The notes: a model not told the origin generated them from the letters alone. 64,000 nt of DNA from an uncultured Actinomycetes bacterium (GCA_963737605.1 CAVTTE010000001.1:2631-66630), one strand, 5' to 3'. Positions 1,096-54,527 are shown, counted from the stretch's first letter. Translations and numbers: made by a program.

Positions 1096-1109
1096 GGGCC
1101 TTTCGTCAC
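1096..1109. promoter_or_regulatory. Candidate DosR/DevR-type (NarL-family) operator, 5-4-5 palindrome GGGCC TTTC GTCAC
   Basis: It lies in the archease-nadA gap, 71 nt upstream of nadA. It matches the recurrent window motif in 4/5 + 4/5 half-site positions (GGGAC/GTCCC). Confidence 0.25.
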
Positions 1110-1179
1110 GGATTACGCGGGGCGTTCGCCACTGGATGCCCACCTTCCCGAGCGTCACGGTGATGCTCGGAGGTGCACG

Positions 1180-2225
1180 ATGAGCTTCGAGCACGTCGTC
1201 GGCCCGGCGCCCCGGCCCCGGCCGTCGGTCCAGGACACGGAGGCCAGCCGGGCCGTTGCCGCCGACGGCGAGATCCAGTCGATGAGCGAAGCGGAGCTGA
1301 TCGACGGGATCCACCGGCTCCGGCGCGACCGGGAGGCGGTCGTGCTCGCGCACAACTACCAAATCCCGCCGATCCAGGACTTGGCCGACTTCGTGGGCGA
1401 CTCCCTCGAGCTGTCGCAGGAGGCGGCACGTAGCGATGCACCGCTGATCGTGTTCTGCGGGGTGCACTTCATGGCCGAGACCGCCGCGGTCCTGTGTCCA
1501 GGCCAGCGCGTGGTGATCCCCGATCGCCGAGGCAGGTTGCTCGCTGGCGGCGACGGTCACCGCGGACGAGCTCCGGGCGTGGAAGGCCGAGCATCGCCGA
1601 CGCGTTGGTGGTCGCCTACGTGAACACGGACGCCGACGTCAAAGCCGAAGCCGACTACTGCTGCACCTCGGCGAACGCGGTGCAGATCGTCCGGTCGATC
1701 CCCGAGGACCGCGAGATCCTGTTCCTTCCCGACATGTTCCTCGGCCTCTTCGTCGAACGGATGTCAGGCCGTGCACTGCAGCTGTGGTTGGGCGAGTGCC
1801 ACGTGCACGCCGGCATCCGCGCCGACGATGTGTCGGCGTGCCTCGACGCGCATCCAGGCGCCGATCTGCTCCTGCACCCCGAGTGCGGGTGCGTGAGCCA
1901 GTGCCTCTCGGCGCTCGGTGAAGGCGACCTCCCTGCCGAGCGAACCCACATCGTCGGGACCGGCGGCATGGTGCGGCACGCGCGGTCGTGCACCGCGCCG
2001 GTCGACCTCGTCGGCACCGAGGTCGGCCTCCTCCACCGGCTCCGGTCCGAGAACCCCGGCCGACATTTCGTCCCGGTCAAGGAGGACGCCCTCTGCGACT
2101 ACATGAAGACGATCACGCTCCCGAAGCTGTACCGCTCGTTGCGCGATCTCGTCAGCGAAGTGACGGTGCCCGAACCGACCGCGACACGGGCACGGGAGGC
2201 GATCGAGCGCATGGTGGCGGTGTAG
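1180..2225 (+). CDS. nadA: Quinolinate synthase NadA; two +1 frame changes (~1523, ~1597)
   Basis: ORF 1180..1623 ([41 protein letters not shown]) and ORF 1494..2225 ([41 protein letters not shown]) are the N and C parts. The connecting [23 protein letters not shown] lies in the third frame. 1046 nt = 348 codons + 2 extra bases. Confidence 0.85.
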
Positions 2226-2228
2226 ACG

Positions 2229-3545
2229 ATGCCCTTCCGTGACCGACGAGAAGCGGGGCGGCGCCTTGCCGAGGCGCTCGTTGCACCTCCGCGACGAAGT
2301 CCCGATCGTGCTCGGGCTCCCTCGGGGCGGGGTTCCGGTCGCATTCGAGGTCGCGCAGGCCCTCGACGCACCGCTCGACGTCCTGATCGTGCGGAAGCTC
2401 GGCGTTCCTCACCAACCCGAGCTCGGCATGGGCGCGGTCGGCGAGGACGGCGTGCGCGTCCTGAACCCCGAGGTGATCCGCGGGTCGGGCGTCACCGACG
2501 AGGACATCGCGCAGGTCGAGGCACGCGAACGCATCGCGGTCGAGCAGCGGGCGCGCCTGTTCCGCGGCGCGCGGCCCGACGTCTCGTTGGCCGGCCGTAC
2601 CGCCATCATCGTCGACGACGGGCTCGCGACCGGAGGCACGGCACGTGCTGCGATCCAGGTCGCGCGCGTCCACGGAGCCGACCGGGTCGTGCTGGCGGTG
2701 CCCGTCGCGCCTCCTGACACGATCGATGCGCTGCAGAAGCGACGCCGACGAAGTCGTGTGCCTGGAGAGCCCCGAACCGTTCTGGGCCATCGGGGCGTGG
2801 TACGGCGACTTCTCGCCGACCGTGGACCGCGAGGTGATCGATCTGCTCAATGAGGCCCGGAAGGCTCGCGCCGCGGCGGCCGGAGGGAGCGACCCACGCA
2901 TGCACGCCGGCTACGACGGTGACGTCGAGGTGCACGCGGGCGAGCACGTTCTGCCCGGCAGCCTGACCATTCCACCCGGAGCGAGCGGAGTCGTGGTGTT
3001 CGCGCACGGCAGCGGGAGCAGCCGCCACAGCCCGCGCAACCGCTACGTCGCCGATGCGCTGCATCGAGGCGGACTGGGCACGTTGCTCTTCGATCTCCTG
3101 TCGCCCGAGGAGGAGGTCGACCGGGAGAACGTCTTCGACATTCCCCTGTTGGCGGGGCGGCTGGCCGCTGCGACCGACTGGCTCGCGCGCGCAGGCGGCG
3201 GCTCGTGAGCTCGCCGTGGGCTACTTCGGTGCGAGCACCGGGGCCGGCGCCGCGCTGTGGGCTGCGGCAGAGCCGGAGTCGCCGGTGCAGGCGGTCGTGT
3301 CGCGTGGAGGGCGTCCCGACCTCGCCCGGCGGCGTCTCCGAGACGTGCGCGCCCCGACGCTGCTGATCGTCGGGGGCCGGGACGATCTGGTGATCGACCT
3401 GAATCGCGAGGCGGCCGACCACCTGCGCTGCGAGCACCGGCTCGAGATCGTGCCCGGCGCGACGCACCTGTTCGAGGAGCCCGGAACGCTCGAGGTCGTC
3501 GCGGAGCTGGCGTGTCGCTGGTTCGTCGATCACCTCGCAACGTGA
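2229..3545 (+). CDS. Phosphoribosyltransferase fused to a dienelactone-hydrolase-type alpha/beta hydrolase (Rv0571c-like architecture); three +1 frame changes
   Basis: Order of motifs: MPFRDRREAGRRLAEAL (ATG 2229), LRDEVPIVLGLPRGGVPVAFEVA, TAIIVDDGLATGGTARAA (PRPP loop), ADEVVCLESPEPFWAIGAWYGDF, VVVFAHGSGSSRHSPRN, LAVGYFGASTGAGAAL (nucleophile elbow), LIVGGRDD, GATHLFEEPG. Pieces lie in ORFs 2229..2717, 2239..2853, 2645..3208 and 3054..3545. Junctions are at ~2283, ~2740 and ~3190. Confidence 0.8.
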
Positions 3546-3563
3546 CCACACGCCGGACGACGG

Positions 3564-3577
3564 GGCTCCTTCGACCC
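3564..3577. promoter_or_regulatory. Candidate operator of the same family, GGCTC CTTC GACCC
   Basis: It lies in the 84-nt gap upstream of the BON/DUF2267-acs-E1-E2-ACP operon. It shares TTCGACCCTGGGC with the site at 48935. Confidence 0.25.
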
Positions 3578-9833: not shown

Positions 9834-10277
9834 TCACGAGGCGGTGTCGAGAGCCTCGGTCAGCCTTCCGAACAGGTCGCGCATCGACACCACGCCGACA
9901 ACACGGCCGTCATGGTCGATGACGACGAGGTGACGCACGTCCTTCTCGACCATCCTCCGCGCGGCATCGAGGACGCGATCCCCTGCGTCGACCGTGACGA
10001 TCTCCTCTGTCATCACGTCCGCGGCCCAGACCGCGTCCGGGTCGGCATCACCGGACAGCGCTGCGAGCACATCGCGCTCCGAGACGATCCCGACCCGGTC
10101 GTCGCCGCGCCGCACGAGGGCGCATCCCAGCGCCAGCTCGGACAAGATGCCTGCCAGCGAGCGCAGAGTCATCTTCTCGTCGACGGAGACGGGGGCGTCG
10201 GCGACGAGCGGTCCGAGCGTGCGCAGCGCCTCTGTCACCACTTGGCGGCCCGCGGCGTCAAGCCGATCGGGATTCAC
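9834..10277 (-). CDS. CBS-pair domain protein
   Basis: ORF 9834..10277 (-), 147 aa, intact. It has two CBS repeats (GIVSERDVLAAL, VVGVVSMRDLF). Confidence 0.75.
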   Translation of the reverse strand: MNPDRLDAAGRQVVTEALRTLGPLVADAPVSVDEKMTLRSLAGILSELALGCALVRRGDDRVGIVSERDVLAALSGDADPDAVWAADVMTEEIVTVDAGDRVLDAARRMVEKDVRHLVVIDHDGRVVGVVSMRDLFGRLTEALDTAS

Positions 10278-10668
10278 GTCGCCTCCTCGTGACCAGGGCG
10301 GCGAGGACGTCGCGGGCCGAGACCACCCCCACCACCACGTCGTCCTCGACGATCGGGAGGTGGCGGATCTCGTTGTCCAGCATCCTGAGCCCTACGTCGA
10401 AGACCGTCTCGTCGGGTGTCGCGGAAGCCAGGTCCTCGGTCATGACGTCCGCCGCCCTGCACTCGTCAGGGTCGACGCCAGCGGCGAGCGCGGCGACGAG
10501 GTCGCGCTCCGAGACCAGGCACGGCGGGTGCGTCCCTTTCACCATCGCTGCGCCCACGGACTCCTCGGTGAGGGTCTCGGCGACGGCGCGCAGAGAATCC
10601 TCCGTGTGAACCTGCACCGCTGGGCGGTGCACGACGATCCGGATCGCGTCGTCGGGTTGCACTTCCAT
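10258..10668 (-). CDS. CBS-pair domain protein (paralogue of the downstream gene, 20-nt overlap)
   Basis: ORF 10258..10668 (-), 136 aa, intact. It has two CBS repeats (LVSERDLVAALA, VVGVVSARDVLAAL). Confidence 0.75.
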   Translation of the reverse strand: MEVQPDDAIRIVVHRPAVQVHTEDSLRAVAETLTEESVGAAMVKGTHPPCLVSERDLVAALAAGVDPDECRAADVMTEDLASATPDETVFDVGLRMLDNEIRHLPIVEDDVVVGVVSARDVLAALVTRRRRESRSA

Positions 10669-10700
10669 TGCTTGCGGTCCTCTCGCGTGGCCTCATCGAA

Positions 10701-10727
10701 GTGTCCGGCGACGGCGCCGCCGGACAC
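10701..10727 (-). terminator. GC-rich hairpin (10-bp perfect stem GTGTCCGGCG / CGCCGGACAC, 7-nt loop) downstream of hsp20
   Basis: It lies 22 nt past the hsp20 stop on the minus strand, in the 80-nt gap before the CBS gene. No U-tract follows, so it could be a terminator/attenuator or just a stabilising stem. Confidence 0.25.
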
Positions 10728-10748
10728 CCTCGATCGTTCCTTGGGGAC

Positions 10749-11174
10749 TTACGCGCGCTCGATCGGGATCTTCGTGGCTTCGGCCTCTGTCCGATCGATC
10801 GGCAGCCGAACCTCGAGGATCCCGTCCTTGTAGGTGGCCTTGACGTCCTCCCGGGCCGCGCCAGCCGGCAACGGAACAGTGCGGGAGAAGCTCCCGTAGT
10901 GGAACTCGCTCCGGTAGCCACCCTTCTCGGTCTTCTCGCTTTCTTCCCGGCGCTCGGCTCGGATCCGCAGGCTGTGGTCCACCACCTGGATGTCGACATG
11001 CTTGTCGGGGTCGAGCCCGGGCATCTCCGCTCGAATCACGAGCTCGTCGCCGTCGACGAACTCCTCGAGTCGGAGGAGCTCTTCGAACGGCCACGCCCCC
11101 GGCCAACCGAACCGATCGAGCAGCCGGCGCGGTCCGAACCGCTCCCGCCACGCGACCTCCTTCGTCTCCGCCAT
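10749..11174 (-). CDS. Hsp20 / alpha-crystallin family small heat-shock protein
   Basis: ORF 10749..11174 (-), 141 aa, intact. The alpha-crystallin domain reads ELVIRAEMPGLDPDKHVDIQVVDHSLRIRAERREE...GSFSRTVPLPAGAAREDVKATYKDGILEVRLP. Confidence 0.9.
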   Translation of the reverse strand: MAETKEVAWRERFGPRRLLDRFGWPGAWPFEELLRLEEFVDGDELVIRAEMPGLDPDKHVDIQVVDHSLRIRAERREESEKTEKGGYRSEFHYGSFSRTVPLPAGAAREDVKATYKDGILEVRLPIDRTEAEATKIPIERA

Positions 11175-11247: not shown

Positions 11248-11270
11248 AGGGCCGACCGTCGGTCCCGCCG

Positions 11271-11284
11271 GGGACCTTCGGCTC
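11271..11284. promoter_or_regulatory. Candidate operator, GGGAC CTTC GGCTC
   Basis: This is an exact copy of the site at 23617 (a 16-mer, GGGGACCTTCGGCTCT, is shared). Its centre lies 30.5 nt upstream of a TAGCGT -10-like hexamer (11308..11313), which itself lies 7 nt before ATG 11320. Confidence 0.4.
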
Positions 11285-11307: not shown

Positions 11308-11313
11308 TAGCGT
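11308..11313 (+). promoter_or_regulatory. Possible -10 hexamer TAGCGT (TANNNT class), implying a leaderless M50-CBS mRNA
   Basis: The last T lies 7 nt before ATG 11320, and no Shine-Dalgarno sequence lies between. The same hexamer recurs at 23656 at the same distance from the same box. Confidence 0.25.
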
Positions 11314-11319
11314 CGAGAC

Positions 11320-12448
11320 ATGACCGCCCAGCGAGGCGACGTGCGCCCCCGTCGGCGTCCCGTGACTCATCGCCTGTCGGTGTCGATCGGGCACGTGCTC
11401 GGCATCGACATCCGGGTGCATGCGACCTTCCTGCTCCTGGTGGCGCTGTTCGCGCTGGCGTACTCGGGATCCGGCGTGCCGGGCGTCGCTGCCGGATTGG
11501 CGTGGCTGGTCGTGATCTTCGCGTGCGTCGTGATCCACGAGCTCGCGCACAGCCTCGTGGCCCGACGGCGAGGCGGGGTCGTGCACGAGATCGTCTTGCT
11601 CCCGATCGGGGGCGTGTCGAAGCTCGAGCGCCTGCCCGAGTCGCCCGCCGACGAGCTGGCGGTCGCGATCGCCGGGCCACTCGCGAGCCTTGTCCTCGCG
11701 ATCGTCGCTGCCACGGCGGCGCTCGCTCTCGGCCAATCACTGCTGCCGGTCGACATGTTCGCCGGTCCGATCCTGCCGCGGATCGCGTGGTTCAACCTCC
11801 TCGTCGGGGGCTTCAACCTGCTGCCGGCGTTCCCGCTCGACGGCGGGCGGGTGTTCCGTGCCCTGCTCGAGCGCCACCGCGACCTGGAGACCGCCACACG
11901 GCTGTCGGCGCGCGTCGGGCGCGTGCTCGCGGTGCTCCTGATCGTCGTCGGCCTCCTGCTCAACTTCTGGCTCGCGCTCATCGGGCTGTTCGTCTACTTC
12001 GGCGCGTCGGCGGAAGAAGCCGCGACCATCGTGCACCTACGGCTCAAGGGGTTGCGGGTGGCCGACGCGATGCTCCTCGACCCGATCGTGGTCGACGAGG
12101 ACGACACGGCAGGCAGCCTCGATGACCTTCGGCGGCGCACTGCCCAGAAGGTGTTTCCGGTCACGGTTGCAGCCGGTAGCCCAGGCGTCGTCGGCGCCGA
12201 CGCCATTGCGGCCGCGCCGGCGGAGACGAAGATCCGAGATCTCATGGCCCGCCACCTCGTGGTGCCGCCGACCGCGTCGCTCGAGAAGGACGCGTCTGCC
12301 GCTGCTCCAGCAGTCGCCTCTTTCCGCCCTCGTTGTCGTGAGGCGCGGCTCCGTGGTGGGGCTCCTCCGGATGGAGGACGTCAACGCGGCGGTCGCCGCC
12401 CACGCGGCCGGACACGGAGGGATCGCACGTGCGCCCAACCGTGGTTGA
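11320..12448 (+). CDS. Site-2-protease family (M50) membrane metalloprotease with C-terminal CBS pair; one +1 frame change (~12293)
   Basis: ORF 11320..12483 carries HExxH (VIHELAHSL), multiple TM segments and NLLPAFPLDGGRV. The second CBS repeat (SALVVVRRGSVVGLLRMEDV) and the stop at 12448 lie in ORF 12122..12448. 1129 nt = 376 codons + 1. Confidence 0.8.
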
Positions 12449-12475
12449 CGACTCCGTCGTCTGCGCAACTGGCAC

Positions 12476-14366: not shown

Positions 14367-14373
14367 AGCGGGA

Positions 14374-15813: not shown

Positions 15814-15827
15814 TGAAGGAGCGTGGC

Positions 15828-18122: not shown

Positions 18123-18123
18123 C

Positions 18124-18834: not shown

Positions 18835-18844
18835 GTGGGGATCG

Positions 18845-21278: not shown

Positions 21279-21521
21279 TGACGCCGGCCCGGACGTCGAA
21301 TCCGATCAGCCGGCTTCTCTCGAGCCGTCGTCCGCGTCGAGCTCTTCGACGAGCTCGTGCGGATCGTGGTCTTCGCATGGGTCGGTCTGCTCGTGGGGAT
21401 CGGGTACCCGGTCCCTCTCCTTCGGTGCTGGGCCCGCACCCGGCGCTTCCTCCGCCACCTCACGGGGGTCGCGTCGACCGACGTCTTCCGTTGCGTCGCC
21501 CGGCTCGTGCCTTCGGACCCA

Positions 21522-22185: not shown

Positions 22186-22228
22186 CCTCGAAGCCTCCTG
22201 CTCAGTATTCGCGTCGAGCATTCGCCGC

Positions 22229-23514: not shown

Positions 23515-23594
23515 GAGACTCCTCCTCCGTCAGGCACTGCCGTGCACGCCTGCGGCATCCCTTCAAGGGTGCACGGCTCGGAGCCGCTGCGCCA

Positions 23595-23608: not shown

Positions 23609-23616
23609 CTACAGAG

Positions 23617-23630: not shown

Positions 23631-23655
23631 TGCGCGGATCGCCCACCAGACTCGA

Positions 23656-39593: not shown

Positions 39594-39685
39594 TGCTCCT
39601 CCCCCAGGTCTGCACGTCTGGTCGCAGCACGCGCAGTATGCGGCCGCGGGAGAATCGGCGATAGGGGCCGAACGGGGCCACTGAA

Positions 39686-39699
39686 GGGACCTTCGGCCC
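39686..39699. promoter_or_regulatory. Candidate operator, GGGAC CTTC GGCCC
   Basis: It lies in the aminotransferase / Liv-SBP divergent gap. It is the third exact copy of the 12-mer GGGACCTTCGGC. Confidence 0.4.
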
Positions 39700-41327: not shown

Positions 41328-41343
41328 CGGAGGCACGCTGACG

Positions 41344-42255: not shown

Positions 42256-44973
42256 CCGCCGTCGACCAGCGCGTCGCGGGCGCGGGTGAGGCCGCCGTCG
42301 CGACCAAGCCGGTCGGGCGTGCCCCATGGCGGGCGACGCTCGGCCACTACTTCCCGCTCTTGGTGCTCGTGGGCTTCCTGACGTGGTTCGGTACGGCCCA
42401 GTCGACGGATCGATTCTGGATCACGCTCGGCATCCAAGCCCTCTGGACCGCGATCGCGGTGATCGGCTTGAACATCCTGCTCGGTTACACCGGCCTCCTG
42501 TCGCTCGGGCATTACGCCTTCTTCCTCTACGGCGGCTTCGTCGGCGCGATCTGGGCGGTGCAGGACTGGGGGCTCAGCCCGTGGCTGGGGTTCCCGCTCG
42601 CGTTCGCGGCCGGAATGCTCCTCGGCGCCCTCCTCGCGCTCACCTGCTGTCATCTTCACGGCTTTTACCTCACCGTGGTGACGCTCGCGTTCGGGCTGAT
42701 CGCAGCGGCGCTGGCGTTGCTCTTCGAGAGCCTGTTCAACGGGCTGTCGGGCCGGTCGGTCGACCAACCCCTCGACACGAACTTCTTCTTCCTCGACGCG
42801 AACAACCCGAACCGACCCTTCGTCGGGCTCTACTGGATCGGGGTCGTCCTCCTGCTCCTCTCGCTGTATATGAGCTGGAACCTCGTGCACAGCCGTTGGG
42901 GTCGCGGGTACAAGGCGATCCGAGAATCAGAGGTCGCGGCGAGGCTTTCGGGCATCCCGACCTACTGGTTCAAGGTGTCGGCGTTCGCGCTCTCGGCCGG
43001 GTTCGTCTCGCTCGCCGGGGTCCTCGCGGCGCAGACCAACCTCCAGGTCACGATGGTGAACGGCAGCGCCATCGTGGGCCAGTCGTTCCAGTACGTGATC
43101 TTCGCGTTCTTCGGTGGGCTCGGCACGCTTGCAGGCCCGATCGTGGGCGCGTTCACGTTCACCCTCGGGTTCGGCATCGACTTCGGAGGCGAGAGTTCGA
43201 CGGAGCGGCTGAGCGAGTACGACGCGCTGTTCTACGGCGTGCTGATCATCGTGATCGCGATCGTCGCGCCCCGCGGCATCGTGGGCGCGTGGCACGCCCT
43301 CGTGGCGCGCATCAAGCGTCGTACGACGCCGCAGACTTCGGAGCCGGCACCCGTGTCGGCGGTCTCACCACGGCGGGTCGAGCTCCGGCGCGTCTCGACC
43401 CACGGCCGCAGTGCGCCGCCCGCGCGCGGGCCGATTCTCGACATCCGGGGGGTGACGAAGCGCTTCGGGGGCGTGTCGGCGCTCTCGCACGTCGACGTCG
43501 CGATCGAGCCCGGGAATATCCACGCCGTCATCGGGCCGAACGGTTCGGGGAAGACGACGCTGATCAACGTCGTCACCGGCATCTACCGTTCCGACGACGG
43601 AAGGGTGCTCTTCCGGGACCGCGACCTGACGAGCCTGCCGGCGCAGCGCCGCACCGGGCTCGGCGTCGCCCGAACCTTTCAGGCCTGCCAGATCTGGCGC
43701 CGGATGACCGTGCTCGAGAACGTGATCGTCGGCGCGCACACGCGCACTCGCGCCGGGCTCATCCGCTCGTTGCTCGTCCCCGGCCGGCTCCGGCAGCGAG
43801 GAGCAGCGCGTTCGCGACCGCGCGCTCGAGCTGCTCGCGTTCGTGGGATTGGCCGACCGCAGCGACGAGCCGGCCGGCAGCCTGGCCTTCGGCGACCAGC
43901 GGCGGCTCGAGGTGGCGCGCGCCCTCGCGTCGGAGCCCGACGTCCTGCTGCTCGACGAGCCGGTCGCCGGCATGCACCCACGCGAGATCGGCGACATGAC
44001 CATGCTGATCGAGCAGATCCGGGCGGCCGGGATCACCGTGCTGCTCGTCGAGCACCACGTGGACGTGGTCATGCACCTGTCCGATCGCGTGACCGTGCTC
44101 GACGGCGGCAGAGTGATCTCCGAGGGCACCCCCGCCGAGGTGCGCGCCGACCCGAATGTCATCGCGGCCTACCTCGGGGAGGAGACACGGACGACGCCGG
44201 CTCGCACGTCGCCCGTGCAACCGCTGGTGGCCGACGACCCGGCTCGCGAGGAGCGCGCACCGATCCTGACCGTCCGTGGGCTCCAAGTGCAGTACGGCGC
44301 GGCCCGCGTCCTGCATGGGATCGACCTCGACGTCTGCGAGGGTGAGATCGTCGCCATCATCGGGAGCAACGGCGCCGGGAAGACGACGAGCCTCAAGACC
44401 GTCTCGGGCGTGAGCGAGCTCTTGAAGTCCGTGCACGGCGAGGTCACCTTCCTCGGCGAGCGCGTCGAGCGTCGCCCTGCATACCGGATCGCGCGCATGG
44501 GCATGGCCCACGTGCCGGAGGGACGCCGCGTGTTCGCGGACTCGACGGTCCAGGAGAACCTGTTGCTCGGCGCGTACCGCCGGCGCGATCACCGGGTCGC
44601 CGACGACCTCGAATCGGCGTACGCGCGGTTCCCGGTGCTGAAGGAGCGGCGTCATACGCCGGCCGGCCTCCTGTCGGGCGGCGAGCAGCAAATGCTCGCC
44701 ATCGCCCGCGGCCTCGTCTCCGCGCCGCGCTGCCTGCTGCTCGACGAGCCTTCATTGGGCCTCGCCCCGATCCTCGTCGACCAGGTGTTCGGCATCGTCC
44801 GGGAGCTCGCCCGCGATGGCATGACGATCCTGATCGTCGAGCAGATGGCGACGAAGGCGCTGGCGGTCGCCGACCGCGCCTACGTCCTCGAGACCGGAGT
44901 GATCGCGGCGCAGGGCCCGGCGCTCGAGCTCGCGTCGGATCCCACGGTGCAAGCGACGTACTTCGGCGGGTGA
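42252..44973 (+). CDS. Fused LivM-type permease, LivG-type ATPase and LivF-type ATPase in one reading frame; one +1 frame change (~43785)
   Basis: GTG 42252 overlaps the livH stop (GTGA). The permease part has LLGYTGLLSLGHYAFF. ATPase 1 has GPNGSGKTTL, then, after the shift, LAFGDQRRLEVARAL, LLLDEPVAGM and VEHH. A ~30-aa linker with no stop follows. ATPase 2 has GSNGAGKTTS, LSGGEQQMLAIARGL and LLLDEPSLGLAP. Pieces lie in ORFs 41496..44345 and 43843..44973. Confidence 0.75.
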
Positions 44974-46380
44974 TGACCATGGAGCGGCTGGGCGCCCTCG
45001 ATGCCGAGTTCCTGCACATGGAGGACGGGATCGCGCACATGCACGTCGCCGGCGTCTCGGTGTTCGAGGGCCCGGCCCCGACCGTGGACGAGCTCGGGCG
45101 GCTGCTCACCGCCAAGCTCCACCTCATCCCCCGCTACCGGCAGCGCGTGCGGTTCGCTCCCCTCGCGCTCGGCCGACCGGTGTGGCAGGACGACCCGCAC
45201 TTCAACCTCGCGTACCACCTCCGCCATACGGCGCTGCCCCCGCCGGGCGGCGACGCCGACCTGTGCCGGCTCATGGGCCGGCTCATGTCGCAGCCACTCC
45301 ATCGCGATCGCCCGCTGTGGGAATCCTGGATGGTCGAGGGCTTGCCCAAGGGTCGCTGGGCCGTGATCTCCAAGGTCCACCACTGCATGGTCGACGGGAT
45401 CTCCGGTGTGGAGCTCCTCCACGTGCTGCTCGCCGTGGATCGTGACGAGCCGTTGCCCGAGCCGCAGCCGTGGAAGCCGGCGCCCGAGCCCTCCGGCCCC
45501 GCAGTGGTGGTCGACGCGTGGGAGGGCCTCGCCGGCGACCTCACTGCTGCGCTCCGACGGGTACCGGCGGCGCTGCGCGACCCGCTCGGCGCGGGGCGGT
45601 CCGTCGCGCGGACGAGCCAGGGTGCTCTCCGGTTCGGGCGCCATCTGGCGACCACACCACCGCTCTCGATCGAGGGAACGATCGGGCCGAACCGTGCGTG
45701 GGCGCATTCCTCGGCGAAGATCGACGACATCCGGGTCATCCGCGGCGCGTTTGACGGCACGTTGAACGATGTGGTGCTCGCAGCCGTCGCGGGTGGATAC
45801 CGCGAAGCTGCTGCTCCGTCGCGGCGACGACGCCGACCACGCGGTGCTTCGCTCCCTCGTGCCCGTCTCGGTGCGTTCCGAGGACGCGCGTGGCGATCCC
45901 GGCAACCAGGTGTCGGCGTTCCTGTACGAGCTCCCGGTCCATGTGGCCGACCCGCTCGAGCGGCTCCGCGCGGTCCACGAGGAGATGAGCGATCTCAAGG
46001 AGTCGCACATGGCAGATGCGGGCGAAGCAGCCGTGACCATCGGCGAGCTCGCGCCGCCGATGATCGTAGGGTTGGTTTCCCGAGTCGGCTCGCGCATCAT
46101 GCACCGACTGCCGCAACGCTCGGTCAACACGGTGACGACCAACGTTCCCGGACCCCAGTTTCCGCTGTATTGCCTGGGACGGGAGATGCTCGAGTACTAC
46201 CCCTACGTTCCTCTCAGTCATGGCGTGCGGGTCGGCACCGCCGTCCTCTCGTACAACGGTCGTCTCGCGTTCGGGATCACCGGCGACTTCGACACCGCAT
46301 CCGACGTCGGCGTCCTCGCCCGGGCGATCAAGGCCGGCATCAGAGAGCTCAAGAAGCTCGCGACGAGACAACCTCGGTGA
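44973..46380 (+). CDS. Wax ester synthase / diacylglycerol acyltransferase (WS/DGAT, Tgs family); one frame change (~45790)
   Basis: ATG 44973 overlaps the upstream stop (TGATG). Motifs: LDAEFLHMEDGIAHMHVAGV, KVHHCMVDGISG (HHxxxDG), then NVPGPQFPLYCLGREMLEYYPYVPL. Pieces are ORF 44970..47969 (first ~275 codons) and ORF 45769..46380. Confidence 0.85.
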
Positions 46381-47969
46381 CCGACAACCTCGCCGATGCG
46401 GTCGACTACCTGCACCGCGGGTGGGCCGTTCTCCCGCTGCACGGGATCCGATCCGGGCGCTGCACCTGCGGCCGCCGCGACTGCCCGGCGCCGGGAAAGC
46501 ACCCGAGGATCCGGTGGGAGACCTACCAGTGGCGCGCGCCGCGGGAGGCCGACCTCGAGGCATGGTTCCACCGGTGGCCCGACAGCAACCTCGGCGTCGT
46601 CACCGGGACCATCTCCGGCTTGGTCGTGCTCGACATCGATCCCCGCAACGGCGGTGACGACGAGATGAGCAAACTCGAGCACCTCCACGGCGCCCTCCCC
46701 CCGACGCCGGAAGTCCGCACGGGCGGCGGCGGTGTCCATCTCTACTTCGAGTCCCCGGAGCATCCGATCGCGACGACGATCCTCGGCCCCGGGGTCGACC
46801 TGAAGGCCGACGGCGGCCTCGTCGTGGTTCCACCCAGCGTGCACGCCTCGGGTCACCGCTACGAGTGGGAGCCCGGCGCCGACCCCGACGCGCTGCCGCT
46901 CGCCGACCTGCCCGCCTGGTTGCACCCGCCGGGGTCCGAGGGCGGGCGGGGCGGCGCGGGCGCGCCGGCTCCGCCGCGGTCGACCGCCGACCGCGTCGAG
47001 TTCGCCGATCTCTGGCGCGCGCTCGGCATCGACGTCGTCCCCGGCGACCGCTACTACCGGTGCCCGTTCCACGACGACCATCATCCGTCGCTCCACGTCG
47101 ACGCCGAGGGATGCCGGTGGTACTGCTTCGGATGCCGCCGCGGCGGAGGCCCGGGGCGGCTGCGCCGCCTGGTCGCCCAGAAGGTCGGCGTGTCCGCACG
47201 TCGGCCGGCCGTGTCCCCGCCGCCTGACGACGCGGCGCCGGCGACGACCTGGCTCCAGTGGCCGACGATCCAGCCCGGCGGCACGCAGGAAGTCGTCGGC
47301 GAAGCTGCGCACGTCGATGCGCTCGAGGCCGTCGCCGGCGGCCGGACCTGGGCCGGGCCACGCCACCGTCTCGTCTCTGCCGCGCTCGAGTCGGAGCCGG
47401 CCAACCCGCACGACCCCGACGCGGTACGTGTCCGCGTGGGCGGCGAGACCGTGGGCTATCTACCTCGTGACGACGCGCCGCGGTTCCGCACGCTGGTGAC
47501 CGAGCTTGCGGCGAGACACCGTGCCGCGATCGCGAGAGCCCGCCTCACCGGCGGCTGGGATCGAGGACCGCGCGGTCGCGGCGCGCTCGGGATCGAGCTG
47601 GACGTCGACCCCGACCTCGTTCCGCTCCGGCCCGGTACGCCCTTCCTGCCCGACGAGATCGCGGTCGACGTCGTCGGCGAGGACGGGCATCAGGGACCGC
47701 TCGAGCTCCTCGTGGAACACGCCCCGGGGCGAATCCACGTCGCGACGCTGACGGAGGCGATCGCAGGCCAGGGCCCGCGCATCTCGGTCGAGATCGACGG
47801 TGTGGTGGTCGGGGTGCTCGGCCGCACGGCGACCGAGCGCTATCTGCCGGTGGTTCGAGCCGTCACCGCCGGCGGCTTCCCGACCACGTGTGAGGCGATC
47901 GTGGCCCGCGGCGCGAGGAAGTACGAGTGCCGGATCCTCCTCCCCCGCGTCAGTGGGCTCATGGCGTAG
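46377..47969 (+). CDS. Bifunctional primase-polymerase (PrimPol) domain, CHC2 zinc finger and two HIRAN-like modules
   Basis: GTG 46377 overlaps the WS/DGAT stop (GTGA). PrimPol motifs: GWAVLPL, CPAPGKHPRI, SGLVVLDIDPRNGG (DxD), TGGGGVHLYF, VVVPPSVHASGHRYEW. The zinc finger is YRCPFHDDHHPSLHVDAEGCRWYCFGC. The HIRAN-like modules are EVVGEAAHVDALE...SEPANPHDPDAVRVRVGGETVGYLPRDDA and VVGEDGHQGPLE...ISVEIDGVVVGVLGR. 530 aa, no frame problem seen. Confidence 0.75.
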   Translation: MTDNLADAVDYLHRGWAVLPLHGIRSGRCTCGRRDCPAPGKHPRIRWETYQWRAPREADLEAWFHRWPDSNLGVVTGTISGLVVLDIDPRNGGDDEMSKLEHLHGALPPTPEVRTGGGGVHLYFESPEHPIATTILGPGVDLKADGGLVVVPPSVHASGHRYEWEPGADPDALPLADLPAWLHPPGSEGGRGGAGAPAPPRSTADRVEFADLWRALGIDVVPGDRYYRCPFHDDHHPSLHVDAEGCRWYCFGCRRGGGPGRLRRLVAQKVGVSARRPAVSPPPDDAAPATTWLQWPTIQPGGTQEVVGEAAHVDALEAVAGGRTWAGPRHRLVSAALESEPANPHDPDAVRVRVGGETVGYLPRDDAPRFRTLVTELAARHRAAIARARLTGGWDRGPRGRGALGIELDVDPDLVPLRPGTPFLPDEIAVDVVGEDGHQGPLELLVEHAPGRIHVATLTEAIAGQGPRISVEIDGVVVGVLGRTATERYLPVVRAVTAGGFPTTCEAIVARGARKYECRILLPRVSGLMA

Positions 47970-49324: not shown

Positions 49325-49360
49325 TATTGACCCGGGGGGCGCTGCTGCGATGCTTGTCCG

Positions 49361-52300
49361 ATGGGCGCGCTCGACTGGTTCCCCCCGCTTCGTCTGCTTC
49401 CGCTGCGGCGCACCCGCCGGAGGTGGTGCACGGCCGGTCGCGTCCACTTCGAGCTGCGCCAGGTCCCGGCGGCGGATGCGCCCGGCTACGGAGCGCAGGT
49501 GGAAGCGACGCTGGCCGACATCGACGCCGTCGACTGGGCGGAGGTCAATCCGCATCTCCTGCGGGTCGTGGTGGCGCACGACCCCCGCGTCGTCACGACC
49601 GACGAGCTGGAAGCGCGCGCTCGAACAGGCCGAGGCCGAGTGCGGCGCCGACCGCTACGGGTTCCGCACCGAAGGTCCCGAGCACCCGGGTGACTACGAA
49701 CCGATCGTGCGCGACTTCCTTTCGCTGGGTGCCGACGTCGTCGGCCTCGGCCTCGCGCTCGTCGGGCGGGCGCGCCGGTTCCGCCCCCTGCCCATCGAGA
49801 TCGACGTCGCCGCGCTGGTGTCGGTCGTCGAGGGAGCCCCTCGGGTACGTCGCCTCGTCGAGCGCCGGGTCGGCTCTCCGCTCGCCGACCTGGGCCTGAG
49901 TGTCGCGAACGCGGTCGGACAGGGACTGGCGCAGGGCCCGCTCGGGCCCGTCGTCGACATCGCCCACCGCGTGTCGCTCTACGGCGAGCTCGTCGCCCGC
50001 CGGCCGCGCCTGGGAGCGGCGCGAGCCCGAGTTGTGCGAGAAGCCGACCGCCGGGGGCATCACGCCGCCCCCGTCCGACCCACGACCCTGCCCCGTGCCG
50101 CGCGGCCCGGTCGAGACGTACGCCGATCGCGCGTGGTTCGGGTCCCTCGCCGGGTTCGGACTCGCGTTCGCCATCACCAGGCGCATGGATCGCGCCGTCG
50201 CCGCGCTCTACGCCGGGCTCCCCAAGGCGGGCCGATTGGGACGCGAGGCGTTCGCGGCCCAGCTCGGGCGATCGCTCGCCGACCGCGGCGTGATCCCGCT
50301 CGATCCCTCGGCACTGCGGATGCTGGACCGCGTCGACTGTCTCCTCGTCCAGGCGGACAGCGTGCTCGAAGACGACGATGACGGTACGTTGCGTCCCGGC
50401 GCCGACGAGGTGCTGGCGGCCGCGCAGCGGGCCGGACTGCGCACCCTCGTCGCCGGCGGTGATGCCGACCACGCGGCGCGTCTGCCGGTCGACGGCACGC
50501 TTCCCGGCGGCGACGCCGAACTGGCGCGGGCGATACGGGCCGAACAGGCCGACGGGCGCGTCGGTCTGCCTGATCGCGTCGAGAGCGTCGACGGCGTTGG
50601 CGGCCGCCGACTGTGCCATCGGCTTGTGTCGTCCCGGCGCCGAGCCGGCCTGGGGCGCGGACTTGCTCTGCGCCGACGACCTCGCTCCAGCCTTCCTCGT
50701 CGTCTCGGCCGTGCCGGAGGCCCGGGCGGTGAGCCGGGAGAGCGTCGTGCTCGCCGGAGCGGGCGCGGCGGGCGGCCTGCTCCTCGCCTTCGGAGGGCTC
50801 CTGCCCGGCACGACGCAGCGCGCGACCACGGCTGTGAACGCGGCGACGGCGATGGCCATCGTGAACGGCGCGCGTCGCGGAATCGGCGTCACCCGCCGAG
50901 CGGTGCCCGTGCGTGTCGATCGCACGCCCTGGCACGCGCTCGAGGTCGAAGATGTCCTCCACTTCGTCGGTTCCTCTCTCGATGGTCTTCCCGAAGACGA
51001 GGCTCGGCAGCGGGCGACACCACACACCTCCGAGTCGCCGCCCGCAGCGCAGTTCACGCGGGCCGTCGTCGAGGAGCTCGCGAATCCGCTGACGCCGGTC
51101 CTCGGTGCCGGCGCCGCGCTGTCGGCGGCGGTCGGATCATTTGGCGACGCGGCCATGGTCGGCGGCGTGATGGTGTTGAACTCGATCGTCGGCGGCGCGC
51201 AACGTCTGCGGGCCGATCGCGCGATCGCCGCCCTCGTCCGGCGGAGACAGCGCTCCGTGAGCGTCGCTCGCGGCGGCCGAGACCGGAACGTGAGCTCCGA
51301 CGATCTCGTCGTGGGAGACGTGATCCGCCTGCAGTCGGGCGAGTCCGTACCGGCCGACTGCCGGATCATCGGCGGCGGCCCGCTCGAGGTGGACGAGTCG
51401 AGCCTCACCGGCGAGTCCGTTCCCGTGGCGAAGAACGCCTCACCGACCGACGCGGCCCTCGTCGCGGAGAGGACGTCCATGGTCTACGAGGGCACGTCGA
51501 TCGCCGCCGGCGAGGCCGCAGGCGTGGTCGTCGCGGTCGGCGACGCGACCGAGGCCCGCCGCAGCGTGCTGCTCGGTGGGCCTCCGCCCTCCAGCGGCGT
51601 CGAAGCCCGTCTGCGTTCGCTCACCGCGCTCACCATTCCGGTGTCGCTGGGGGCCGGCGCCGCCGTCGTCGCGATCGGCATGTTGCGGGGACGCTCGATG
51701 CGGCAGACGATCGGCGCGGGCGTGAGCCTCGCGGTCGCCGCCGTGCCCGAAGGGCTGCCGCTGCTGGCGACCGTCGCGCAACTCGGCGCCGCCCGCCGCC
51801 TTTCGAGCCGCGGTGCGCTGGTGCGGAACCCGCGCGCGATCGAGGCCCTCGGCCGGGTGGACGTCGTCTGCGCCGACAAGACCGGGACGCTGACCGTCGG
51901 TCATATCGAGACCCAGGTCGTCTCCGACGGTGAGACCGAAGCGCCAATCGGCGCCGTCCCGCCGGGATTGCGGCGGGTTCTCGCGGTCGCGCTGCGGGCG
52001 ACACCCGATGCGGGCCACGGACGGCTCCCGCACCCCACCGACCGCGCGATCCTGCGCGGCGCAGAGGTGGCGGCGGTCACCGTGCGAGACGGTGGGGAGG
52101 ACTGGGGGCGCCTCTCGGAGATGCCTTTCGAGCCGGCGCGTGGTTTCCACGCCGTCCTCGGCGACGACGGCAACGGGCTCGGCGTCAGCGTGAAGGGCGC
52201 ACCCGAGGTGCTGCTGCCACGCTGCAACCGTTGGTCGCGTCCCGCCGGCGACGTGCCGCTCACCGAAGATGACCGGGCCCGCTTTGCCCGCGTGGCCGGC

Positions 52301-53516
52301 GATCTGGCGCGGCGAGGCTTGCGCGTGCTGGCGCTGGCAGAACGCAAAGCAGAGCACCATGACGATCTCGCCGACCACCGCGTCCGCGGGCTGGCCTTCT
52401 CCGGCTTCGTCGGCCTCAGTGATCCCGCCCGCGACACCGCAGCCGAAGCGATCCGCAACCTCCGTGACGCCGGGGTCGACGTCGTGATGATCACCGGCGA
52501 TCACCCGAGCACCGCCGAGGGCATCGCCGCCGAGCTCGACCTGCTCGACGGCGGAGCGATCACGACCGGTGCGGAGATCGACACTTTGTCCGACGACGAG
52601 CTGACAGAAGCGGTCGCCGCGACGCACGTCTTCGCGCGTGTCACCCCGGCCCACAAGGTGCGAATCGTCGCCGCGTTCCAGCGTTCCGGGAGGGCGGTCG
52701 CGATGACCGGTGACGGCGCCAACGACGCGCCCGCCATCCGGCTCGCTGACGTCGGCATCGCGCTCGGCAAGCGGAGCACCGCCGCCGCCCAGGATGCGGC
52801 CGACCTCGTCGTGGTCGACGAGCGCATCGAGACCATCGTCGACGCCGTGCTCGAGGGACGCGGCCTCTGGGCCTCCGTACGGGACGCGGTCGCGGTGCTC
52901 GTCGGAGGCAACCTCGGCGAGATCGCGTTCACGTTGCTCGGCACGATGGTCGACGGGACGTCGCCGCTGAACGCCCGCCAGCTGTTGCTCGTGAACCTGC
53001 TCACCGACGCCGCGCCGGCGCTCGCGCTCGCGCTGCGCGCACCGCGGCGAGCTTGCACCGGAGGCGCTCTTGCGGGAAGGCCCCGAGGCATCCCTCGGCC
53101 GCAGCCTCGACCGGGCGATCGTGTGGCGTGGGGTGGCGACCGCCGGCGGGGCGACGGGCGCCTACATCGCGGCGCGTCTCACCGGGACGCCGGGGAGAGC
53201 GCGCACCGTCGCGCTGGTCGCGCTGGTCGGAGCACAGCTGGGTCAGACGCTCGTCGCCGGCGGCCGGAGCCCGACGGTGATCGCGGCCGGGCTCGGATCG
53301 ACCGCAGTCCTCGCCGGCATCGTGCAGACGCCGGGCATCAGTCAGTTCTTCGGGTGCCGACCCCTCGGACCGGTGGCATGGGCCACCGGGCTCTCGGCCG
53401 CCGCCGGCGCGACCGCGGGCGCGGTCGTGGCGCCCCGACTCGTCGAATCGCTCGCCGAAGTGCTGCGCGACCGGGCGGGTGTGCGCGTGCCCGAAGCGCT
53501 GCTCCCGGCGCGTTGA
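49361..53516 (+). CDS. Very long cation-translocating P-type ATPase (CtpI-like N-terminal extension); four +1 frame changes (~49612, ~50000, ~50565, ~53050)
   Basis: Motifs: RVHFELRQV...DAVDWAEVNPHLLRVVV (N-terminal module), LTGESVPV, VVCADKTGTLT (phospho-Asp), MITGDHPSTA, MTGDGANDAPAI. The C-terminal TM region lies in ORF 53070..53516. Pieces lie in ORFs 49361..49693, 49350..50381, 49900..51933, 50378..54139 and 53070..53516. 4156 nt = 1384 codons + 4 extra bases. Confidence 0.8.
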
Positions 53517-53519
53517 GTC

Positions 53520-54467
53520 ATGGGCACTGCCGTCCCGACCTGGACATGGGTGGCCTTCGCCGCCGGGATCACGGTTCTGCTCGTCCTCGATCTGCGCGTG
53601 CTCCACCGCCATCCTCACGCACTCGGTGTCCGCGAGGCAGCAATCCAGAGCGCGGGTTGGATCACACTCGGCCTCGCGTTCGGCGTCGTCGTCCTCGCCT
53701 GGCGCGGCAGCACTCTCGGCGGCGAATACTTCTCGGCCTACCTGCTCGAGGAGAGCCTCTCGATCGACAACGTCTTCGCGTGGGCTCTGATCCTCGCCCA
53801 CTTCGCCGTCCCCCCTGCGTTCCAGCACCGGGTGCTGTTCTGGGGAATCCTCGGCGCGATCGTCCTGCGCGTCGTGTTCATCCTCGGCGGCGTCTCGCTC
53901 CTCGAGCGCTTCGACTGGATCGTCTACGTGTTCGGCGCGTTCCTGCTCGTCACGGCGGCGCGCCTCGTGTTCCGCGACGACTCGAAGCTCGACCCGAACC
54001 GCCATCCAATCGGGCGCCTCGTCCACGCGTGGAAGCCACCCATCTCCGAGCTGTCGGAGCCGTTGTTCGTCGTCCGTCGGGGCGGCAGAGCCGTCCTGAC
54101 GCCGTTGTTCGCGGTCCTTCTGCTCGTCGCGACAACTGACGTCATCTTCGCCGTCGACTCCATACCCGCGGTCCTCGGCGTGACGCAGGACCGCTTCGTC
54201 GCGGTCACATCGAACGTCTTCGCCGTCCTCGGCCTGCGGGCGCTCTTCTTCTTGCTCGCCGCGTTGCAGGCTCGCTTCTCGTACCTCCAGCAGGGCATGG
54301 CGGTCATACTCGGCCTCGTCGGCACCAAGATGGTGCTGTCGGGCGTGGTCGAGATCCCGGTCGGACTGTCGATCGCCGCCATCCTGATCGTGCTGGCCGT
54401 GTCGGTCCTCTCCTCCCTGCGAGTGCACCCGGGCGAGGAGGTCTGGCCCGACGGGCGCGTCCCCTGA
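53520..54467 (+). CDS. TerC-family integral membrane protein
   Basis: ORF 53520..54467, 315 aa, intact. Motifs: YLLEESLSIDNVFAW, ATTDVIFAVDSIPAVLGVT. It starts 4 nt after the ATPase stop. Confidence 0.85.
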   Translation: MGTAVPTWTWVAFAAGITVLLVLDLRVLHRHPHALGVREAAIQSAGWITLGLAFGVVVLAWRGSTLGGEYFSAYLLEESLSIDNVFAWALILAHFAVPPAFQHRVLFWGILGAIVLRVVFILGGVSLLERFDWIVYVFGAFLLVTAARLVFRDDSKLDPNRHPIGRLVHAWKPPISELSEPLFVVRRGGRAVLTPLFAVLLLVATTDVIFAVDSIPAVLGVTQDRFVAVTSNVFAVLGLRALFFLLAALQARFSYLQQGMAVILGLVGTKMVLSGVVEIPVGLSIAAILIVLAVSVLSSLRVHPGEEVWPDGRVP

Positions 54468-54473
54468 GGGCTC

Positions 54474-54487
54474 GGGACCTCCGGCCC
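54474..54487. promoter_or_regulatory. Candidate operator, GGGAC CTCC GGCCC
   Basis: It lies in the 129-nt gap between TerC and the ACAD/PfaA-like genes. It matches the 39686 site in 13 of 14 positions. Confidence 0.35.
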
Positions 54488-54513
54488 GCGCCGCGCGTCG
54501 TACGGATCAATTC

Positions 54514-54527
54514 GGGTCGTTCGGCCC
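54514..54527. promoter_or_regulatory. Candidate operator, GGGTC GTTC GGCCC
   Basis: It lies in the same gap. Its centre is 40 bp from the 54474 site and 70-83 nt upstream of ACAD ATG 54597. Confidence 0.3.

Follow-up and report, generated by a model that had tools for sequence, protein, structure and literature searches.

The 64-kb stretch of DNA analysed here (the window) carries a real, recurring GGGAC-N4-GNCCC motif in its promoter regions. We estimate a probability of about 85% that these 14-bp boxes are operators ("Dev boxes") of a NarL-family response regulator orthologous to DevR/DosR of Mycobacterium tuberculosis and OsdR of Streptomyces coelicolor, an assignment drawn from sequence comparison. 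As such, the window would be a new example of a well-known regulon, and the mechanism itself is not new.

A short motif with all strict matches in intergenic DNA

The exact 12-mer GGGACCTTCGGC occurs three times in the window, at 11271, 23617 and 39686. The mean expectation from dinucleotide shuffles is 0.04, close to the 0.03 estimated in the initial annotation, and 0/100 shuffles contained at least three copies. The gene map places all three copies inside divergent gaps, and the 16-mer GGGGACCTTCGGCTCT is common to those at 11271 and 23617, both as originally described. Exact matches to the pattern GGGNC-N4-GNCCC number six (26977, 39686, 48935, 49311, 54474 and 54514), a total not above chance for the whole window given a shuffle expectation of 5.2. 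All six fall within the intergenic mask (2052 nt, 3.2% of the window), so the strict motif is not equally frequent in coding DNA. Among control spacers of 0–3 and 5–12 nt, 0–2 of 0–6 matches were intergenic, and spacer 4 alone had all its matches in intergenic DNA. The earlier claim that all sites lie in the roughly 3% of non-coding DNA holds for these strict matches. With one mismatch allowed, the pattern is common in coding DNA and occurs less often than in shuffles (45 observed, 62 expected), which places the signal in the strict core, the spacing and the location. Across 80 loci of unrelated lineages, we found 12 motif matches in 672 kb.

Across the six strict matches and three 12-mer copies the GGG.C....G core is invariant. 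The strict matches all close in.CCC; of the three 12-mer copies, two close in CTC. As palindromes the sites are imperfect, and positions 4 and 11 never form a Watson-Crick pair. In place of the GTCCC first proposed, most sites have GGCCC or GNCCC as their second half-site, the form also known for OsdR.

The published OsdR consensus is AGGGCCGATCGGCCCT, with predicted sites AGGGACCTTCGGCCCC upstream of both SCO0167 and SCO0216 and CGGGACCTTCGGCCCT at SCO5979; all predicted sites that were tested were bound in EMSA (PMC5069765). Window positions 39685-39700 are identical to the SCO0167 and SCO0216 sites at 16/16 positions. With a matrix built from the S. coelicolor OsdR sites (threshold at least 8 bits), 8/17 window matches were intergenic. 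A second matrix used 12 sites from four other genomes only (L118, L120, L121 and L002; no window sites). Its best nine window matches were all intergenic, like the six strict matches, as were 10/14 of those with at least 10 bits, and good matches inside genes lie at 22532, 23318, 25844 and 26223.

Boxes, tandem partners and promoter position

The strong boxes are as follows, with scores from the four-genome matrix unless stated otherwise.

39686..39699: strongest box, GGGACCTTCGGCCC, in the aminotransferase (minus) / LivJ-like (plus) divergent gap (39573-39785), 87 bp upstream of the LivJ-like ATG (39786); top match of both matrices (15.6 and 17.3 bits)
11271..11284, plus strand: GGGACCTTCGGCTC, in the hsp20 (minus) / M50-CBS (plus) gap (11175-11319), 36 bp upstream of ATG 11320; 12.2 bits, unchanged in L001
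23617..23630, plus strand: GGGACCTTCGGCTC, between divergent USP genes (minus / plus, 23515-23688), 59 bp upstream of ATG 23689; 12.2 bits
26977..26990, minus strand: GGGACCGATGGCCC (minus-strand reading), in the GNAT/ADP-forming acyl-CoA synthetase (minus) / DUF1918-GAPDH (plus) gap; exact strict match, 11.4 bits
48935..48948: GGGCCATTCGACCC, upstream of an alpha/beta-hydrolase gene (minus); exact strict match, 14.3 bits
49311..49324: GGGTCCTCCGTCCC, upstream of the P-type ATPase-TerC unit (plus); exact strict match, 14.6 bits
54474..54487: GGGACCTCCGGCCC, 110 bp upstream of the PfaA-like ATG (54597); exact strict match, 12.8 bits
54514..54527: GGGTCGTTCGGCCC, 70 bp upstream of the same ATG; exact strict match, 13.4 bits (10.9 bits with the OsdR matrix)

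Several of these boxes have a neighbour at a fixed distance.

39665..39678: GGGCCGAACGGGGC, secondary to the box at 39686 and 21 bp upstream of it; OsdR-matrix match of 9.8 bits at 39664
11249..11262: GGGCCGACCGTCGG, secondary to the box at 11271 and 22 bp upstream of it; OsdR-matrix match of 10.4 bits at 11248
23595..23608: GGGACCTGGGTCGG, a degenerate box secondary to that at 23617 and 22 bp upstream of it; absent among the listed matrix matches of both scans
26999..27012: GTGACTCGCGACCC, possibly secondary to the box at 26977 and 22 bp away by its coordinates; a one-mismatch match, absent among the listed matrix matches
start about 48913: degenerate partner of the 48935 box, 22 bp away; 7.2 bits

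Partners recognised by a matrix thus stand 21–22 bp from at least three boxes (11271, 39686 and 48935), and degenerate partners stand 22 bp from those at 23617 and 26977. Averaged over 17 boxes, the score profile has its peaks at -22, +21 and +22, and tandem boxes about 21 bp apart, centre to centre, occur both in the window pairs and in L121 (5058/5079). The site at 11234 is doubtful.

Three further boxes are weak.

3564..3577: GGCTCCTTCGACCC, an imperfect box 53 bp upstream of the BON/DUF2267 start codon (GTG 3630); 10.3 bits with the matrix from other genomes
30875..30889: GGGGACTTCGGCCC (or GGGAC-N3-GGCCC), between FabH-like (minus) and FocA-PFOR (plus); 8.7 bits
1096..1109: GGGCCTTTCGTCAC, 71 bp upstream of nadA (ATG 1180); 8.0 bits

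The BON/DUF2267 gene heads an Acs-E1alpha-E1beta-E2-ACP gene string, and at the counterpart of its box L001 has the perfect form GGGCCCTTCGACCC and L037 has GGGTCCTTCGATCC. The orthologous FocA/FabH gap of L120 reads GGGTCGGAAGGCCT, and the nadA box is unchanged in L001 and L037 despite different flanks. The initial annotation had the coordinates of all ten of its listed relatives of the 12-mer right (10/10), but they are not of equal standing, several being weak or secondary boxes. Strong boxes stand at the PfaA-like and Liv-WS/DGAT units; the assignments of PFOR, E1/E2-ACP and nadA as targets are weaker, like their boxes.

Putative -10 hexamers lie downstream of three boxes.

11308..11313, plus strand: predicted TAGCGT, between the 11271 box (23 nt away) and ATG 11320 (6 nt away)
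23656..23661, plus strand: predicted TAGCGT, 25 nt after the 23617 box
26947..26952, minus strand: predicted TAGGTT of the GNAT-ACS gene

The short distance to ATG 11320 suggests that the transcript of this gene may be leaderless. The L120 gap orthologous to that at 26977 contains GGGACGGATGGCCC, likewise followed by TAGGTT after a spacer of 24 nt. The order box, 23–25 nt, TANNNT is found at 11271, 23617, 26977 (minus), L120 6139 and L120 17131 (minus), and no clear -10 hexamer was seen at promoters beyond these five. With these predicted -10 elements as the reference, the box centre would fall near -43.

Candidate targets and the regulator

Candidate targets around the boxes include five gene groups.

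9834..11174, minus strand: hsp20 and two CBS-pair genes (Pfam HSP20, CBS)
11320..21649, plus strand: M50-CBS protease, FadD-like ligase, TreT-like glycosyltransferase, PPDK and ABC transporter (Pfam)
21463..24150: tandem USP, PNPOx-like and HTH_31-PNPOx-like genes (minus) and a single USP gene (plus) (Pfam)
39786..47969, plus strand: Liv-type ABC transporter, WS/DGAT and PrimPol-HIRAN (Pfam)
49350..64000, plus strand: P-type ATPase, TerC and, after them, the PfaA-like megasynthase (Pfam, translations)

To judge by strand and spacing, the 11320..21649 string is probably co-transcribed. Pfam families identified in the window include HSP20, CBS, Peptidase_M50, Pyridox_ox_2, Pribosyltran, PPDK, WS_DGAT, E1-E2 ATPase and Form_Nir_trans, together with three Usp domains in two genes. 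These support the flanking genes as typical DosR/OsdR targets, including Hsp20, USPs, CBS-pair, M50-CBS, PNPOx-like and PPDK proteins as well as WS/DGAT, P-type ATPase and PRTase-hydrolase classes. Counterparts of the hallmark dormancy genes are present by Pfam (alpha-crystallin, USPs, CBS-pair Hrp1, M50-CBS, tgs1, ctpF and Rv0571c-like), and the PRTase-hydrolase fusion is intact in L037. The PfaA-like megasynthase has an ACP tandem repeat and extends past the window end. Its relatives in other lineages mostly have no motif upstream, so the link between motif and PfaA is lineage-specific and without cross-species support.

Neither a devR nor a devS gene lies within the 64-kb window, and the presence of the regulator in this genome is therefore inferred from relatives, among which L118 and L121 encode a cognate REC-GerE regulator and GAF kinase. 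The regulator in the homologous island of L118 matches DevR (PDB 3C3W) at E = 1e-79, as against 6e-47 for VraR and 1e-32 for NarL, and the L118 GAF kinase matches the GAF domains of DosT and DevS at E of about 1e-50. The recognition-helix stretch of this regulator, AEKTVKNYVS, is identical to that of DevR. The DNA-contacting residues of DosR are Lys179, Lys182 and Asn183. Boxes stand at the ATPase, hsp20 and USP promoters of L118 (the ATPase box is exact there and has one mismatch in L120), and L120 and L002 also have boxes at homologous promoters. In L121 the dosS/dosR pair is flanked by two copies of GGGCCGAAGGTCCC, which is the best box of the window in reverse complement, and also by tandem boxes 21 bp apart. 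DevR-like regulators 83–100% identical to the L118 protein are abundant, with named sources in Acidimicrobiia, Microthrixaceae and Actinomycetes MAGs and one exception labelled as a Thermoplasmata archaeon.

Could something other than a DevR orthologue account for the boxes? The absence of devR from the window leaves room for a different transcription factor, either a non-orthologous NarL-family paralogue or the XRE-type HTH_31-PNPOx-like fusion (21463-22458, minus strand), whose HTH_31-Pyridox_ox_2 architecture is encoded in the island and kept beside hsp20 in L120. We consider this improbable, because published OsdR sites have the identical motif, the tandem 21-bp layout is of the DevR type, and in L118 and L121 the motif adjoins devRS while the PNPOx-like gene has no HTH or the fusion is not seen. 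Structural elements such as RNA or DNA hairpins, REP-like repeats or terminators are very improbable. Although the GC-rich near-palindromes could fold into a short stem (-3.2 to -7.6 kcal/mol), the mismatched positions 4 and 11 and the variation of predicted stems between sites argue against this, as does conservation that is limited to core positions and does not extend to pairing. Furthermore, no T-run follows any box inspected with its flanks, an Rfam search gave no family match, and every strong site precedes a gene start, with many of them in divergent gaps and none between convergent genes.

Chance, or the composition of intergenic DNA rich in G/C runs at a genomic GC content of 70%, would fit the unremarkable strict count of 6 against 5.2 and the mild enrichment of GGG-containing words in gaps. 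We nevertheless regard it as having a negligible probability, since it is contradicted by the spacer control, with 6/6 strict matches in 3.2% of the DNA at spacer 4 only, and by the cross-genome tests, in which matrices of other organisms recover the same sites and homologous promoters of four other genomes also carry the motif; the exact 12-mer (3 copies, 0.04 expected) also argues against it. The assignment of the 5-4-5 geometry to DosR/DevR made in the initial annotation is instead supported by OsdR-site identity, matrices, tandem layout, gene content and relatives.

For a DevR/OsdR-type operator, we infer a mechanism in which, in response to hypoxia or NO/CO, a GAF-domain haem kinase (DosS/DosT type) would phosphorylate the regulator. 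One dimer of the regulator would bind the strong GGGAC-N4-GNCCC box and a second would be recruited cooperatively to the weaker box 21–22 bp away on the same helix face. From a promoter-proximal box centred near -43 the regulator would contact RNA polymerase as a class-II-type activator rather than a repressor. The predicted result is activation of most transcription units in a ~55-kb dormancy/stress island, with putative operon boundaries: hsp20/CBS-pair, M50-CBS protease through PPDK, USP/PNPOx-like, ADP-forming acyl-CoA synthetase, DUF1918-GAPDH, Liv transporter/WS/DGAT/PrimPol, P-type ATPase/TerC and the PfaA-like synthase, and possibly, through weaker boxes, FocA-PFOR, BON-Acs-E1/E2-ACP and nadA-PRTase.

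Comparison with known response-regulator systems

NarL/FixJ-family operators, for example the 7-2-7 heptamer pairs of NarL, resemble the window boxes as promoter inverted repeats for a dimeric GerE-type helix-turn-helix, but differ in half-site sequence and spacing. The OsdR/OsdK system of S. coelicolor (SCO0204/SCO0203) is closer: its consensus has the same GGGNC-N4-GGCCC form, the 16-mer AGGGACCTTCGGCCCC is present in both genomes, and its targets are likewise clustered, in a ~50-gene region including USPs, PPDK and PNPOx (PMC5069765). Spacers differ, being CGATCG-like in Streptomyces and C/G-W-W-C/G (often CTTC) in the window, and the OsdR regulon extends to developmental genes and nitrate reductase, neither of which is seen in the window.

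In M. tuberculosis, the Dev-box consensus is TTSGGGACTWWAGTCCCSAA, each DevR promoter has 2–4 tandem boxes, and tgs1 has two, at -42.5 and -63.5 (Chauhan et al. 2011, PMC3177182). The window boxes share the 5-4-5 inverted repeat, the invariant GGG..C / G..CCC, the central W-W, the promoter location and the tandem arrangement about 21 bp apart. A proximal box near -43, where the predicted -10 elements would place it, would also fit. The second half-site is usually GGCCC/GNCCC rather than GTCCC, and the TT/AA flanks of the 20-mer are not conserved. DevR targets with window counterparts include hspX (Hsp20) and Rv2626c (CBS), comparable to the hsp20 and CBS-pair unit, as well as USPs, Rv2625c (M50-CBS), tgs1 (WS/DGAT), ctpF (P-type ATPase) and Rv0571c (PRTase-hydrolase). 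The kinases of relatives have one GAF domain (375-391 aa) where M. tuberculosis has two. Unlike M. tuberculosis, the host belongs to an uncultured Acidimicrobiia-like lineage and has its targets packed in a single ~55-kb island, which may add the PfaA-like megasynthase, PFOR, the E1/E2-ACP module, the Liv transporter and PrimPol to the DevR regulon.

Placement of the motif in the window

The 12-mer GGGACCTTCGGC occurs at 11271, 23617 and 39686, where chance would give about 0.03 copies by the estimate of the initial annotation and 0.04 by the mean of dinucleotide shuffles of the window, with at least three copies in 0/100. All 13 sites listed in that annotation were found where it had placed them, and it also read correctly that each copy of the 12-mer lies in a divergent intergenic gap (3/3 by our gene map) and that the copies at 11271 and 23617 share a 16-mer, GGGGACCTTCGGCTCT. 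The strict inverted repeat GGGNC-N4-GNCCC has 6 matches, against 5.2 expected from whole-window shuffles, a count that is unremarkable alone, but 6/6 fall inside an intergenic mask of 2052 nt (3.2% of the window). Control half-sites with spacers of 0–3 or 5–12 bp, or in everted or direct orientation, give at most 3 intergenic sites among 0–10 matches, which ties the signal to the 4-bp spacer and to promoter DNA. The separation from coding DNA holds for the strict form and is lost in the one-mismatch form, which we rejected as uninformative (45 matches versus 62 expected, mostly in coding DNA). Weak boxes lie at 1096, 3564 and 30875; the one at 3564 is perfect in the sister contig L001.

Two further observations concern placement. 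The strict motif is absent from coding DNA (0 occurrences in ~62 kb, versus ~5 by shuffles), where other spacers have 0–6; numbers are small, and counter-selection on stray boxes within genes may be at work. Between the hydrolase and ATPase genes, 613 nt were called non-coding; this stretch includes another good box, at 49189 (12.2 bits), and may also contain a small Cys-rich ORF at 48880-49275 (minus strand).

Because many genes are broken across frames, simple calling by ORF, GC3 or codon score was unusable in this window of ~70% GC, and genes were mapped with a six-frame codon HMM and by reading of translations, key genes being confirmed by Pfam.

Genes and features of the window (key genes confirmed by Pfam).
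RtcB; archease; NadA; phosphoribosyltransferase then hydrolase; BON/DUF2267 protein
Acetyl-CoA synthetase (Acs); E1alpha; E1beta; E2; ACP
Minus strand: two CBS-pair proteins and Hsp20
M50 protease (with CBS); FadD-like ligase; TreT-like glycosyltransferase; PPDK; ABC transporter
Minus strand: HTH_31-PNPOx-like protein, PNPOx-like protein and tandem USP, facing a single USP on the plus strand
GNAT/ADP-forming acyl-CoA synthetase (GNAT-ACS); DUF1918 with GAPDH
FabH-like genes; FocA-type channel; PFOR; DHODH-like gene
Aminotransferase; Liv-type transporter; WS/DGAT; PrimPol-HIRAN protein
Hydrolase; P-type ATPase; TerC; PfaA-like synthase (running off the window)
Frame-split regions: 1180-2225, 4466-6299, 12497-14366, 31855-35471, 44970-46380, 49350-53516 and others

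Neither devR nor devS is present in the 64-kb window, which is part of a 146-kb contig, and Rfam gathering and tRNA scans of the window returned 0 matches each. Frame-split genes include those for NadA, Acs, FadD, PFOR, WS/DGAT, the P-type ATPase, FocA and GNAT-ACS. Since the same genes are intact in a JGI contig (L037) whose RtcB is 96% identical to that of the window, the breaks are most likely assembly indels rather than pseudogenes. The nearest genome is the MAG 'uncultured Actinomycetes bacterium MFD04944.bin.2.40' (L001; 93% nucleotide identity). There, ~1.09 kb corresponding to window 5649-6735 (end of Acs, start of E1alpha) is missing at 5417-5420, either by deletion or by misassembly in that MAG; the segment is present in L037. 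The gene for the protein with PrimPol, CHC2 zinc-ribbon and HIRAN domains (46362-47969, plus strand) appears to share a transcript with WS/DGAT and the Liv-type transporter; in an operon for lipid storage and transport, such a member is unusual.

Correspondence with OsdR sites and DevR promoters

The boxes match published sites of OsdR, the Streptomyces coelicolor orthologue of DevR, whose consensus is AGGGCCGATCGGCCCT; those of its predicted sites that were tested by EMSA were all bound (Urem et al. 2016, PMC5069765). The predicted sites include AGGGACCTTCGGCCCC before SCO0167 and SCO0216 and CGGGACCTTCGGCCCT before SCO5979 (PMC5069765). The first of these equals window 39685-39700 at 16/16 bases, and the 12-mer is contained in the sites of all three genes (3/3). 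When a matrix built from the 26 sites listed by Urem et al. 2016 (PMC5069765) was run on the window, 39685 ranked first and 8/17 matches of at least 8 bits were intergenic. An independent matrix, made from 12 sites all taken from the related contigs L118, L120, L121 and L002, placed its best 9 matches in intergenic DNA, as were 10/14 matches of at least 10 bits.

The tandem arrangement is also shared. Every M. tuberculosis DevR promoter carries 2–4 tandem boxes in helical phase, those of tgs1 lying at −42.5 and −63.5 (Chauhan et al. 2011, PMC3177182). Comparable pairs occur in the window: 21–22 bp from the strong boxes at 11271, 39686 and 48935 lie partners (11249, 39665 and 48913) that a matrix scan also detects. 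For 23617 and 26977 the partners, each at 22 bp (23595 and 26999), are degenerate and were listed by neither matrix scan. Averaged over the surroundings of 17 boxes from five genomes, the matrix score has its peaks at offsets −22, +21 and +22. A TANNNT hexamer follows the box by 23–25 nt in 5 cases (window 11271, 23617 and 26977, the last on the minus strand; L120 6139 and, on the minus strand, 17131), and from these predicted hexamers the proximal box would be centred near −43. At the M50-CBS gene, 6 nt separate one predicted −10 hexamer, TAGCGT (window 11308-11313), from the ATG at 11320, so the transcript may be leaderless.

Boxes and devRS in related contigs

Related contigs carry the boxes, in L118 and L121 together with the regulator genes. 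A groundwater contig (L118; Hsp20 66% identical) has a homologous island with genes for USP, two P-type ATPases, Hsp20, CBS and PNPOx-like proteins, a GAF-HisKA_3 kinase and a REC-GerE regulator. That regulator matches M. tuberculosis DevR (3C3W) over its full length at E = 1e-79, compared with 6e-47 for VraR and 1e-32 for NarL, and its recognition-helix stretch AEKTVKNYVS is identical to that of DevR; the kinase GAF domain matches DosT and DevS at E ~1e-50. In this contig the ATPase promoter has the box GGGTCGAAGGTCCC, hsp20 is preceded by GGGACGAAGGTCCC at a distance of 84 bp, a USP gap has GGGCCCAAGGTCCC, and a further divergent gap has GGGGCTGAGGTCCC. L120, strongly syntenic with the window, holds GGGACGGATGGCCC in its DUF1918/GNAT-ACS gap, orthologous to that of window 26977. 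It also has a box before a USP gene, and boxes with one mismatch in the gaps at FocA/FabH and at the ATPase. An Acidimicrobiia MAG (L002) has boxes before an HPF-like gene followed by M50-CBS and before a PRTase gene. In L121 (GCA_046074845.1), a divergent dosS/dosR pair is flanked by two copies of GGGCCGAAGGTCCC, which is the best box of the window in reverse complement, and by two tandem boxes spaced 21 bp. DevR-like regulators with 83–100% identity to that of L118 abound, the named sources being Acidimicrobiia, Microthrixaceae and Actinomycetes MAGs with 1 exception labelled Thermoplasmata archaeon.

In M. tuberculosis devR and devS are co-directional, whereas in L118 and L121 the kinase is divergent from devR across a gap of 8–55 bp. 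The DosS-like kinases of L118 (12081-13905) and L121 (3079-4942) are short (375–391 aa), and their first GAF region alone matches DosT/DevS haem-GAF structures. Two other candidates were set aside: a box in L015, whose match lies within a coding gene and was taken as chance, and the RtcB homologue P0015 (L036), which is not syntenic.

Inverted repeats of this kind might instead be hairpins or terminators. Several observations make this unlikely. Positions 4 and 11 are unpaired in every box, the folds predicted for the boxes have little stability and little consistency, none of the boxes inspected with flanking sequence runs into a T-run, and the boxes sit 5′ of genes. Binding by a different protein, for example the island's own HTH_31-PNPOx fusion, is less parsimonious given that the best box is identical to predicted OsdR sites and that boxes accompany devRS in relatives. 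The fusion itself (21463-22458, minus strand) combines a DNA-binding domain, HTH_31 (XRE-type), with a PNPOx-like (Pyridox_ox_2) domain and is kept beside hsp20 in a relative (L120 10493-11158). It may regulate the island as a second factor that senses flavin or redox state. The initial assignment of the motif as a DosR/DevR-type box is supported by OsdR-site identity, both matrices and the devRS association, and these sequence comparisons support the window as a putative DevR/OsdR-type regulon island of an uncultured Acidimicrobiia-like actinobacterium. Where each operon begins and ends, that its control is positive and not negative, and which signal induces it are inferences.

Reach of the putative regulon

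The PfaA-like synthase was followed in one metagenome scan with its ACAD domain, fused to KS at window 54597-57518, as query. Among the best 80 of >560 relatives (71–88% identical, mostly in lineages with 55–63% GC), the motif is absent upstream of most, and one locus alone (L038) has a box, at −178. The link between this gene and the box is accordingly lineage-specific, without cross-species support; the ACAD domain itself is widespread well beyond this lineage, given the number and GC content of its relatives. Within the synthase, a 341-bp unit repeated 2.9 times at 96% identity (61065-62048) corresponds to near-identical tandem ACP domains, with a 24-bp unit repeated three times just upstream (61002-61073).

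At somewhat below even odds (roughly 0.45), we propose that in this lineage a DevR-type switch may have extended into a contiguous ~55-kb island. A single hypoxia signal would then govern chaperone and USP genes together with a PfaA-type megasynthase (ACAD-KS...ACP x3), WS/DGAT, PFOR with a formate/nitrite channel, an E1/E2-ACP 2-oxoacid-dehydrogenase-like module and PrimPol-HIRAN as one dormancy programme. If so, fermentative pyruvate metabolism would be coupled to special or storage-lipid synthesis and DNA repair in dormancy. Our search of an accessible literature library found no description for the class Acidimicrobiia of a DosR link, including such a programme. The lineage-specific additions (PfaA-like synthase, PFOR, E1/E2-ACP module, WS/DGAT and PrimPol) form a testable list and hint at anoxia survival in uncultured soil actinobacteria. 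The value of these results lies in annotation and comparative regulon biology rather than in a new mechanism. They suggest that the DosR/DevR/OsdR dormancy regulon, described in Mycobacterium and Streptomyces, also exists in Acidimicrobiia-like actinobacteria of soil and groundwater, and the conservation of operator, tandem promoter layout and core targets argues that the DevR system is ancient in Actinomycetota.
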